In this document: piece after piece, positions 2,064 to 3,869 of the stretch
Position numbering within the stretch: position 1 is the first letter of the stretch
Layout: each line of letters begins with the position of its first letter
From: a virus
Lineage: Duplodnaviria; Heunggongvirae; Uroviricota; Caudoviricetes
Virus record (IMG/VR): IMGVR_UViG_2648501338_000005
Length of the DNA stretch: 6,641 bases
Strand: one strand, 5' to 3'
Program-made: the position numbers and the translations under genes
Notes under the pieces: model-generated
Database searches by the model: none
What the model was told of the DNA's origin: nothing
What the model saw: only the letters and a program-made list of their open reading frames with translations

Positions 2064-2408
2064 TCATCGTAAAACATCCTCCACGCTTGTCAGTCCGTTT
2101 CGCTCCAGGTAGTCCATCGCCTTATCCGGCAGTTTGCAGTCCGGCTTCGCTTTCCTCAGTTGCCAGGCTAACTGCTTTACCTGCATAGTTAACTCGTCGA
2201 CCAGACGCTGATACCCCACTGGTTTGTATTCATGCAATTTACCGGCTGGCTCTGCTGCCAGCGATGCCAGTGCGATTTCCAGAACAGCAATATCCATCTT
2301 ATATGTGCGGATGATGTCATGGTCGATTGTGCCCGGTATACACAGTCTCTGTGCTTCAATAGTCTCCTCTGCGTGAGCTATTAACTGCTCTCTGGTAATA
2401 GTGGTCAT
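2064..2408 (-). CDS. hypothetical prophage protein (114 aa)
   Basis: ORF-track ORF. Its ATG (2408-2406) overlaps the TGA of the upstream gene (2407-2405) in an ATGA arrangement. No family recognised. Confidence 0.6.
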
Positions 2409-2920
2409 GCCGCGTTTCCTTCTTTCTTATTAACAATTACACCGTCATATATTTCATTAAGGTGCCCTCTCAACTCCATGCGCCTTAATGCAGACAACAT
2501 GTAATCGCATTCAACCTGCTTATTTCCAGTAAATGGCTTATCGTCAGGATTACCCCAACAGCAATTACCCTTGGGCCACCCATGTACTTTCCGTACTCTT
2601 CCGTTAACAACGTGAAGTAATCCCCAGCCAGGTGGTAAATCCTCAATTGAAATAATTCCCGGCTCACTAATAAAGAATCGCCAGTCGCCCATTCCAAGAG
2701 ACGGATTTTTACGAAAACGCTTTTTTCTATCTGCCAACAAGTCAGCACGAGAACATTTCGCCTCTATCAGGCATGATGCTGAATTTCTGAATCCCATAGC
2801 ATCTGGCTGTTCTCCGGTACTGGTTACAGCTATAAAGCGGTCATGAAAACAAACCTTGAACCCGTTGCGCTTAAGGAACTTGTACGCAATCTGACAGAGT
2901 TCGCGGTGTGTTAACGCCAT
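2405..2920 (-). CDS. putative PD-(D/E)xK-type nuclease-like protein (171 aa)
   Basis: ATG at 2920 preceded by AAGGAG (track extends to a TTG at 2950). Motif QPD-x13-EAK ([20 protein letters not shown]) matches the PD...(D/E)xK core spacing, with a CC-x-G Cys cluster further on. Fold assignment is inference from the motif only. Confidence 0.5.
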
Positions 2921-2921
2921 A

Positions 2922-3869
2922 TCACTCTCCTTTGATGCGAATGCCAGCAAGCCAGTTTCTTATGCCGATATATTCAGCGTTCCTGAAACCGCTTTTTACA
3001 TATATAAATGGCAAGCGAAGATTGTGACCATTGACTGCCAGGTAGTCTTTACAACCCTGTTCGGTGAAACAGCAGGTAACGAATTCATCAATATCTTTCA
3101 CAGCAACGCGCCGCCATTTTTCTGGTGGCTCTCGAAAGTTTTCATGAAGTAGCTCGAGACGACGACTATGGCGTTTATTGGCTTCATTGCCATCTTCGTC
3201 AACCCAGACAATCCGGTCATGGTCATAATCAGCATCAACAACGATTTCGCGCTTTTGATACACACAAAACATGGGATCTGACGTTATTCGATTGTCCTGT
3301 GTTCGAATATTTTCACCGATGATGCCAAACGAATCTGGTGCAGATTTTGTCTGCATCTCTTCGATACGTTCAGCCATCGCAGCACACTCTTCAAAGTTGC
3401 TTAATGCTTTTCGCTCCCATTCGGCGCATTGTTTTTCCAGTTCTGCTATGCGCTTACTTCCATCCGCGATTACTCCCTCGTAATATTCACGCTGCTCGTT
3501 GAGTTTTGATTTTGCTGCTTCAAGCTCAACGTGCAGCTTCCCTACCGTTAGCGCAATATCCTCGTTCTCCTGGTCGCGGCGTTTGATGTATTGCTGGTTT
3601 CTTTCCCGTTCATCCAGAAGCGCCAGCGCAACATTTGGATTAAAGGCAGCAATAAATTCAGCGTTTGCGTAAGCCTGAGCATCTGTTTCAACCAGGCAGT
3701 TAACATGACATTCTGCAATCACGCCACCGGGTTCTCCTTTCCATTTTTGACAAACAAAAACTCCTGTTATATTCCCATGCTGATTGCCCGATGTATGCCC
3801 TACGATGTAGCATCCTTTAGTTGCTTTCTCTGCTGCTTCACGCAGCGCCTGATAGTCAATCTCGCTCAT
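2922..3869 (-). CDS. ead/Ea22-like modular prophage protein (315 aa)
   Basis: ATG at 3869, TGA at 2924-2922. N-terminal MSEIDYQALREAAEKATKG... resembles, from memory, the conserved N-terminus of ead/Ea22-like proteins. Central Glu/Arg/Lys-rich heptad-like region (ERERNQQYIKRRDQENEDIALTVGKLHVELEAAKSKLNEQREYYEG...) and a distinct C-terminal domain follow. Confidence 0.55.
   Translation of the reverse strand: MSEIDYQALREAAEKATKGCYIVGHTSGNQHGNITGVFVCQKWKGEPGGVIAECHVNCLVETDAQAYANAEFIAAFNPNVALALLDERERNQQYIKRRDQENEDIALTVGKLHVELEAAKSKLNEQREYYEGVIADGSKRIAELEKQCAEWERKALSNFEECAAMAERIEEMQTKSAPDSFGIIGENIRTQDNRITSDPMFCVYQKREIVVDADYDHDRIVWVDEDGNEANKRHSRRLELLHENFREPPEKWRRVAVKDIDEFVTCCFTEQGCKDYLAVNGHNLRLPFIYVKSGFRNAEYIGIRNWLAGIRIKGE
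2926..2947 (-). repeat. 22-bp leader motif, copy 1 (CTGGCATTCGCATCAAAGGAGA on minus strand)
   Basis: Lies 5 nt upstream of the ATG at 2920. Matches the copy at 4670-4691 at 21 of 22 positions with identical spacing to the start codon. Here it overlaps the last codons of the upstream ead/Ea22-like gene. Confidence 0.7.

Follow-up and report, generated by a model that had tools for sequence, protein, structure and literature searches.

An Ea22 variant 3 gene, an MmcB-like nuclease-fold gene and a mosaic gene at the end of a lambdoid prophage operon, probably shuffled independently

Two described groups of proteins come closest to the genes discussed here. Ea22 is known from the literature as a coiled-coil protein whose C-terminal domain is conserved; it is reported to form tetramers, and it biases the development of lambda and Shiga-toxin (Stx) phages towards lysogeny. 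Phages Stx2a_WGPS8, 1717 and 2851 are listed as carriers of Ea22 variant 3 (V3), and two-hybrid surveys found no partner for lambda Ea22 (PMC10834534). In phage 933W there is a published precedent in which the C-terminal domain of Ea22 is split off as a separate gene. The MmcB-like nucleases are described by the Pfam model PF06319 and by the solved structure 3DNX of SPO1766; MmcB itself has been described as an SOS-induced PD-(D/E)xK endonuclease that guards Caulobacter against mitomycin C (PMC9578287) and is implicated in the repair of mitomycin C cross-links. The present analysis concerns three adjoining minus-strand genes in 6,641 nt of caudoviral DNA (IMG/VR record IMGVR_UViG_2648501338_000005), the whole of which is called the window: an Ea22-like gene (ea22) for a protein of 315 amino acids (aa), a gene for a 171-aa protein with a nuclease motif, and a gene for a 114-aa protein. 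A first-pass annotation had proposed that they form one overlap-coupled cassette of the kind seen in phage conflict systems. Our results argue instead that the trio is probably a set of independently shuffled, "moron-like" accessory genes of an E. coli lambdoid prophage rather than one system.

Do the three genes travel together? Genomes were counted among 5,426 complete E. coli genomes, a gene being scored when a megablast match covered at least 80% of the query. The 171-aa gene is present in 910 of them (about 17%), many Stx phages included, the 114-aa gene in 563 and the C-terminal domain of Ea22 V3 in 473. The C-terminal domain and the 171-aa gene are adjacent in 318 genomes, the 171-aa and 114-aa genes in 49, and all three genes are contiguous in 11. 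The arrangements differ from phage to phage. For example, in Stx phages the pair of ea22-V3 and the 171-aa gene lies in the leftward exo-xis region and is followed by a gene for 118 aa and a DUF551 gene. In phage ArgO145 a different gene comes after Ea22-V3, and the 114-aa gene is found after an HNH endonuclease gene, while in strain FDAARGOS_536 the 114-aa gene stands after two small genes (EaA-type) and before hokD.

The genes part company beyond E. coli as well. In Klebsiella, Morganella and Serratia the nuclease homologues are situated after replication genes; directly upstream there is a variable coiled-coil or weakly Ead_Ea22-like protein in Klebsiella, a winged helix-turn-helix-like one in Morganella and a methyltransferase-like one in Serratia, and dATP/dGTP pyrophosphohydrolase, DUF551 and NinF or NinG are among the proteins encoded downstream. 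In a comparison of 32 loci across species, Ead_Ea22 is encoded directly upstream in 7, and elsewhere NinB, a C5 methylase, Lar, TraV or Ogr takes that place; the downstream neighbours include DUF551, TraC, an N6/N4 methylase and RusA. Neither a 114-aa homologue nor the V3 C-terminal domain stands beside the nuclease gene in any of 33 other species. Seen from the other side, there is neither a nuclease nor a 114-aa homologue within 3 kb of the C-terminal-domain proteins of Serratia, Hafnia, Enterobacter and Citrobacter, and no nuclease homologue occurs at the five V3 C-terminal-domain loci of other genera. Co-occurrence beyond recent common descent, which is expected of a multi-gene system, was not found. 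The genes assort independently in and beyond E. coli, with 11 contiguous cases of the trio in 5,426 genomes, so that for the trio the outcome is the lack of co-occurrence which the first-pass annotation had itself named as a ground for refuting its cassette.

Then what does the tight packing of the three genes mean? It had been read as a sign of obligate co-expression. The open reading frames (ORFs) and their junctions are exactly where the first-pass annotation placed them: the stop codon of ea22 (TGA, 2924-2922) is separated by one T (2921) from the ATG of the 171-aa gene (2920-2918), which is preceded by AAAGGAGAG, and the 171-aa and 114-aa genes share ATGA at 2408-2405. Since all three ORFs have conserved homologues, they are genuine genes and not chance ORFs. 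These junctions are real, but the tight coupling is not specific to the trio, since the whole operon is packed alike. From the DUF1627 gene to the 114-aa gene the gaps are, in order, 0, -4, +93, -8, -4, +1 and -4 nt; the DUF7167 and 58-aa genes overlap by 8 nt, and the 58-aa gene overlaps ea22 by 4 nt. Gene coupling thus extends upstream past the proposed cassette, and because the operon upstream is equally coupled, packing does not mark off a unit of three genes. The same pattern is seen in the Klebsiella, Morganella and Serratia relatives and across the 33 species. The overlaps between stop and start codons are an expression of the translational coupling found generally in such operons. A consensus scan found no promoter-like or terminator-like site above chance within the cassette. 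The coordinates of the features are collected in Table 1.

Table 1. Positions of the three genes, their parts and neighbouring features (window coordinates unless a locus is named)
Feature	Position	Strand	Description
ea22 variant 3	2922..3869	minus	315 aa; Ead/Ea22 N-terminal segment, predicted helical/coiled-coil region, C-terminal domain
Ead/Ea22 N-terminal segment and predicted helical/coiled-coil region	3342-3869		aa 1 to about 176
Conserved C-terminal domain of the 315-aa protein	2925-3341		aa 177-315
171-aa gene	2405..2920	minus	MmcB-like PD-(D/E)xK nuclease-fold protein, basic
Putative catalytic residues of the 171-aa protein			E37, D40, E53, K55
171-aa allele annotation sites	window 2405-2920; L001 15743-15921; L014 4338-4516; L016 3838-4016; L017 2838-3014
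114-aa gene	2064..2408	minus	mosaic protein; last gene of the operon
58-aa gene	4042-3866	minus	very acidic; directly upstream of ea22
DUF7167 gene	4214-4035	minus	59 aa; PF23768 match, E 7.9e-14
Terminator-like hairpin	1940-1973	minus	A-run, GAUCCCG...CGGGAUC stem, U-rich tail

What are the three proteins? The 171-aa protein, with an isoelectric point (pI) of 9.26, carries the motif P39-D40, 12 residues, E53-A-K55, followed by S57-R58-x-D60. The signature named in the first-pass annotation, PD-x13-ExK, is therefore present, and it is nearly invariant in the family, but its spacing is x12 and not x13. The residues E37, D40, E53 and K55 do not vary among 30 close homologues, and across 148 representatives of 50%-identity clusters their conservation is at least 90%. 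The protein shows the restriction-endonuclease-like alpha/beta core fold and the conserved catalytic D...(D/E)-x-K. Its closest structural relative is the MmcB-like structure 3DNX, with the active-site motif in common, and the best named matches among viral models are to phage "MmcB-like DNA repair protein" with a probability of 1.0. When a sequence profile of the family was used, 3DNX was again the top PDB match, with an E of 0.14, which is weak alone, over D-x12-I-E-x-K-x-S-R-x-D-x-x-A-D; a sequence search of the 171-aa protein against PDB chains gave nothing significant.

Models of known families touch the 171-aa family at its edges. Among the 148 representatives the Pfam matches are MmcB-like in 13, Hjc in 23 and UPF0102 in 3, all below or near threshold. 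The 13 more distant relatives match PF06319 at E < 0.01, and of the relatives scanned one by one a single family member (P0261) lies above the gathering score of this model, with 23.1 vs 22 bits. For the 171-aa protein and 29 close homologues there is no match to PF06319, whose gathering threshold they do not reach, and Hjc (PF01870) gives sub-threshold matches only, the best E being 0.018 among close homologues and 1.3e-4 among the 148 relatives. Neither the 171-aa nor the 114-aa protein has a Pfam match, and none of the three proteins has one in NCBIfam. PHROGs lists the 171-aa family as of unknown function, and Pfam, NCBIfam and PADLOC give no match for the window protein or its close homologues. 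The assignment to the PD-(D/E)xK nucleases, already made on first reading, is well supported at the level of fold and motif, from which we infer activity. The protein is a basic, stand-alone PD-(D/E)xK member of the MmcB-like branch whose catalytic constellation is intact, and it is most probably a Mg2+-dependent DNA endonuclease.

An exhaustive hidden Markov model search returned 3,227 cluster representatives of the 171-aa family at E <= 0.001. Homologues range from Enterobacterales to Shewanella, Alteromonas, Halomonadaceae, a metagenome-assembled genome of Rhodobiaceae and Flavobacterium, with identities of 44-90% from Flavobacterium to Enterobacter. The nuclease family extends beyond lambdoid prophages. 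In E. coli, 250 of 1,300 matching sites lie on plasmids (e.g. NZ_CP062833.1, locus L014), and at least some of these plasmids look like phage-plasmids. In Pantoea sp. BAV 3049 (L047, 2412-6086) the nuclease homologue adjoins a TraC-type conjugation gene, and a TraV-like gene is upstream of 1 of 32 nuclease homologues. [quoted passage not shown]

The 315-aa protein has a better known relative. The Pfam model PF13935 (Ead/Ea22-like) covers aa 2-145 with 151.9 bits against a cut-off of 27, well above the gathering threshold, so the Ea22-like N-terminus seen on first reading is confirmed. The separate C-terminal domain is confirmed as well, as the alignment shows it, from about aa 184 to 315, conserved on variable N-termini. 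A coiled-coil middle is predicted from the Pfam family, from a stretch rich in helix formers (aa 71-168) and from PMC10834534. The gene is 96-98% identical in DNA to the genes of Stx2a_WGPS8, 1717 and 2851 and, over its full 948 nt, about 97-98% identical to Ea22 variant 3 of Stx phages, and a profile of the C-terminal domain matches the WGPS8 and EDL933 proteins with an E of 6e-98. By these sequence matches the 315-aa protein is Ea22 variant 3 of the Stx-phage type. A sequence search of it against PDB chains gave nothing significant. The gene is not in the exo-xis region of a leftward early operon; it follows dnaC-like, DUF1627 and DUF977 genes in a rightward operon.

The 114-aa protein has a much narrower distribution, with homologues only in Escherichia, Shigella and Salmonella. 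In many cases the match is partial, is of high identity and falls within a longer protein of 160-200 aa that is Eaa-like or of the DUF551 kind. The C-terminus of ST64B sb32, a protein annotated as ead/Ea22-like, is matched by residues 58-114, and phrog_60 and phrog_8171 are common to the 114-aa and 315-aa proteins. Because of these partial matches, the sb32 tail and the shared PHROGs, the 114-aa protein looks like a short piece from the Ea22/Eaa pool of mosaic proteins that stands by itself.

The setting of the trio could be read from E. coli C325, to which window positions 2000-3900 are 100% identical. The C325 copy is in a lambdoid prophage integrated beside rspB/ynfA, where Qin is situated in K-12. 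Its genes are, in order, cro, ydaT, an O-like gene, a dnaC-like gene, DUF1627, DUF977, a 138-aa gene, DUF7167, the 58-aa gene, ea22, the 171-aa gene and the 114-aa gene; the convergent parDE genes come next, with DUF968, rusA and a DUF1133 gene beyond them. This order places the region among the distal accessory genes of the rightward early (cro-replication) operon in a lambdoid prophage. Between the operon end and parDE sits the hairpin of Table 1, with an RNA folding energy of -19.1 kcal/mol (z -2.15 vs shuffles), which a simple terminator scan missed because its loop is long; it may act as a terminator in both directions.

Some neighbours deserve a brief description. The ParD/ParE toxin-antitoxin pair is at 1294-1856 on the plus strand, convergent with the operon end. 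Phage ArgO145 (L003) has the same antitoxin/toxin pair, and in related prophages (L015) a hokD addiction module is at the parDE-equivalent position, which looks like a site where toxin-antitoxin modules are swapped. The DUF7167 protein (59 aa, 20 D+E) and the 58-aa protein (16 D+E) both have a pI of 4.05, an acidic composition like that of DNA-mimic or anti-restriction proteins. In an Enterobacter prophage (L020, 3644-3820) the homologue of the 58-aa gene is downstream, not upstream, of the Ea22-like gene. The 138-aa ORF (4308-4724) has a weak zinc-ribbon match (CxxC...CxxC; PF08271, E 0.0019); it is conserved in the prophage backbone, and the start chosen by PGAP is 20 codons later, which gives 118 aa.

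The 171-aa gene is also of interest for its annotation. In C325 and two other genomes, the RefSeq/PGAP annotation of the intact 516-nt ORF covers just its first 179 nt and calls them a "frameshifted" pseudogene. The allele of O157:H7 EDL933 has a 2-nt deletion exactly in the codons of E53-x-K55, which leads to a 58-aa product (WP_001356547.1), and this deletion allele is found in at least 216 of 883 E. coli records. Probably the truncated EDL933 allele was used as the reference and makes intact copies look frameshifted. The RefSeq pseudogene label on intact copies is thus correctable.

There is a further question of whether part of the trio belongs together, and here several observations weigh against independent shuffling. 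An adjacent 171-aa gene is found in 318 of the 473 genomes with the C-terminal domain. Among E. coli phages, ea22-V3 and the 171-aa gene travel as a 1.5-kb unit: window 2394-3871 matches Stx2a_WGPS8 (L002) 2881-4359 with 98% identity, and this block extends past the gene pair by 2 nt at the ea22 start and by 11 nt at the 171-aa stop. The block is a two-gene mosaic module moving between leftward and rightward operons. In Salmonella the nuclease domain is found naturally joined to a short N-terminal segment of Ea22 (P0091, P0093, P0104), with an HLQ/NRQ low-complexity repeat after the Ea22 segment. For these reasons some functional link of Ea22-type proteins to the nuclease is conceivable. One form of it would be a two-gene module in which an Ea22-type coiled-coil protein serves as scaffold or regulator of the adjacent MmcB-like nuclease, the 114-aa gene being a bystander; Ea22 might, for example, hold the nuclease inactive or direct it to DNA, and in this way link DNA processing with the choice between lysis and lysogeny. 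The variable coiled-coil or weakly Ead_Ea22-like proteins of Klebsiella and the Ead_Ea22 neighbours in 7 of 32 species would suit such a module as well. We nevertheless regard it as unlikely, because about two thirds of the E. coli genomes with the 171-aa gene are without an adjacent V3 C-terminal domain (910 vs 318), and in 25 of 32 species another gene stands upstream (such as NinB, methylases, Lar or TraV), with the methyltransferase-like gene of Serratia and the winged helix-turn-helix-like gene of Morganella in the same place. No nuclease is near the C-terminal-domain proteins of Serratia, Hafnia, Enterobacter and Citrobacter, the pair's nearly identical DNA speaks for recent common descent rather than long-term constraint, and lambda Ea22 had no partner in the two-hybrid surveys (PMC10834534). 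The nuclease domain is also fused to dATP/dGTP pyrophosphohydrolase, DUF551 and a TniB-like ATPase (P0200, P0211, P0136), and because the partners are whatever genes adjoin, the fusions fit mosaic recombination better than a specific partnership. A more exacting idea, that an oligomeric Ea22 scaffold controls or targets a damage- or structure-specific nuclease as a genuine two-component module, seems to us quite improbable. If it were true, it would offer a molecular mechanism, the first one, for the pro-lysogenic effect that Ea22 has in Stx phages, and the many C-terminal variants of Ea22, together with split-off pieces like the 114-aa protein, would serve as exchangeable adaptor modules.

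Could the three genes be a conflict system after all, for defence, superinfection exclusion or anti-defence, with Ea22 as sensor or scaffold, the nuclease as effector and the 114-aa protein as partner or immunity protein? They do lie in an accessory prophage region beside the ParDE pair, the presumed effector has intact catalytic residues, and the EDL933 deletion in the ExK codons is compatible with a costly or toxic activity. This possibility is very faint, however, given a trio so rarely contiguous, a 114-aa gene that adjoins the nuclease gene in 49 of 910 genomes, the 33 other species with neither companion beside the nuclease gene, junctions that are not unique to the trio, and a published role of Ea22 that is lysogeny-promoting and without a known partner. 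In PADLOC-DB 2.0 no model matched any of the three proteins at E <= 0.1. What stands of the first interpretation is the nuclease fold and motif, while a dedicated three-part conflict system is not borne out, and the trio reveals no new kind of defence or conflict system. We attach equally slight probability to the 171-aa protein being the endonuclease of a small restriction-modification-like or methylation-dependent restriction unit. The restriction-endonuclease fold agrees with it, as do the gene for an S-adenosylmethionine (SAM)-methyltransferase-like protein that overlaps the nuclease start in Serratia and, among the 33 species, a C5 methylase upstream in one and an N6/N4 methylase downstream in another. 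In the window and in most loci, however, there is no adjacent methyltransferase such as Type II restriction-modification systems have; the nearest one in C325 is about 4 kb off, beyond rusA. High conservation of the family, small size and the lack of a separate recognition domain are unusual for restriction enzymes, and the best matches are to MmcB-like and Hjc-type nucleases. Methyltransferases next to the gene in a few loci had prompted the restriction-modification reading, which was rejected as a general explanation. The Serratia ORF (L010-L012, 3478-4008) encodes 176 aa with a DPPH motif, and the features listed under the match that spans the ea22-nuclease region of E. coli O157:H7 F6321 include a "class I SAM-dependent methyltransferase".

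If the three genes are independent accessory genes, what might each of them do? Ea22-V3 would act as a lysogeny-favouring oligomer, as in the literature, and the 114-aa protein would be an Ea22/Eaa-type module. The 171-aa protein would be a metal-dependent DNA endonuclease expressed early after induction or infection. Most plausibly it would process damaged or branched DNA, such as cross-linked or stalled DNA or recombination intermediates, which would let the phage replicate from a template bearing the very damage that induced it. Such a role would parallel that of SOS-induced MmcB and of the RusA and NinG nucleases of the same genome regions. The gene identities, the fold, the conserved motif, the genomic setting and the independent assortment are observed here, and the nuclease activity, its substrate and its role are our inference. 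The prophage already encodes RusA, with which a simple resolvase role would be redundant. A Holliday-junction resolvase role is conceivable, but in the same prophages it would duplicate RusA or NinG. The practical value of the result is modest: the 171-aa family can now be given the annotation MmcB-like PD-(D/E)xK nuclease, its catalytic residues being defined. In Shiga-toxin phages the gene comes directly after ea22-V3, in a region known to influence prophage induction, and for this position it is a reasonable candidate when the exo-xis phenotypes are dissected.

How does the locus compare with the known systems? Known anti-phage defence systems differ from the trio, which has no PADLOC match, no conserved partner genes and no sensor domain. 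With the MmcB-like nucleases the 171-aa protein has the fold and motif in common, but it has no PF06319 score and 22% identity to 3DNX, and it belongs to a distinct family without a Pfam model match, which is carried on phages and other mobile elements; its gene is in a phage early operon, while MmcB is a chromosomal SOS gene. Hjc and the archaeal Holliday-junction-resolvase-like nucleases (PF01870, PF18743) give no match at the Pfam threshold. RusA and NinG, nucleases of the lambdoid nin region, have folds other than that of the PD-(D/E)xK protein, and the first of them is already carried by the window prophage. The 114-aa protein resembles the split-off Ea22 C-terminal domain gene of 933W. 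The ea22 gene is the same gene as the Ea22 V3 prototype of vB_EcoS_P27 (Goddard et al. 2024, PMC10834534; Dydecka et al. 2020, PMC7093339): it has in common with the Stx-phage V3 proteins the length of 315 aa, the Ead_Ea22 N-terminal and predicted coiled-coil part and the V3-specific C-terminal domain, and differs in lying in a rightward operon after replication genes, while the studied Stx-phage copies are in the leftward exo-xis region. The architecture is ordinary lambdoid mosaicism, in which Ea22-V3 is already known and the nuclease family represents a branch, as yet unannotated, within a known superfamily.

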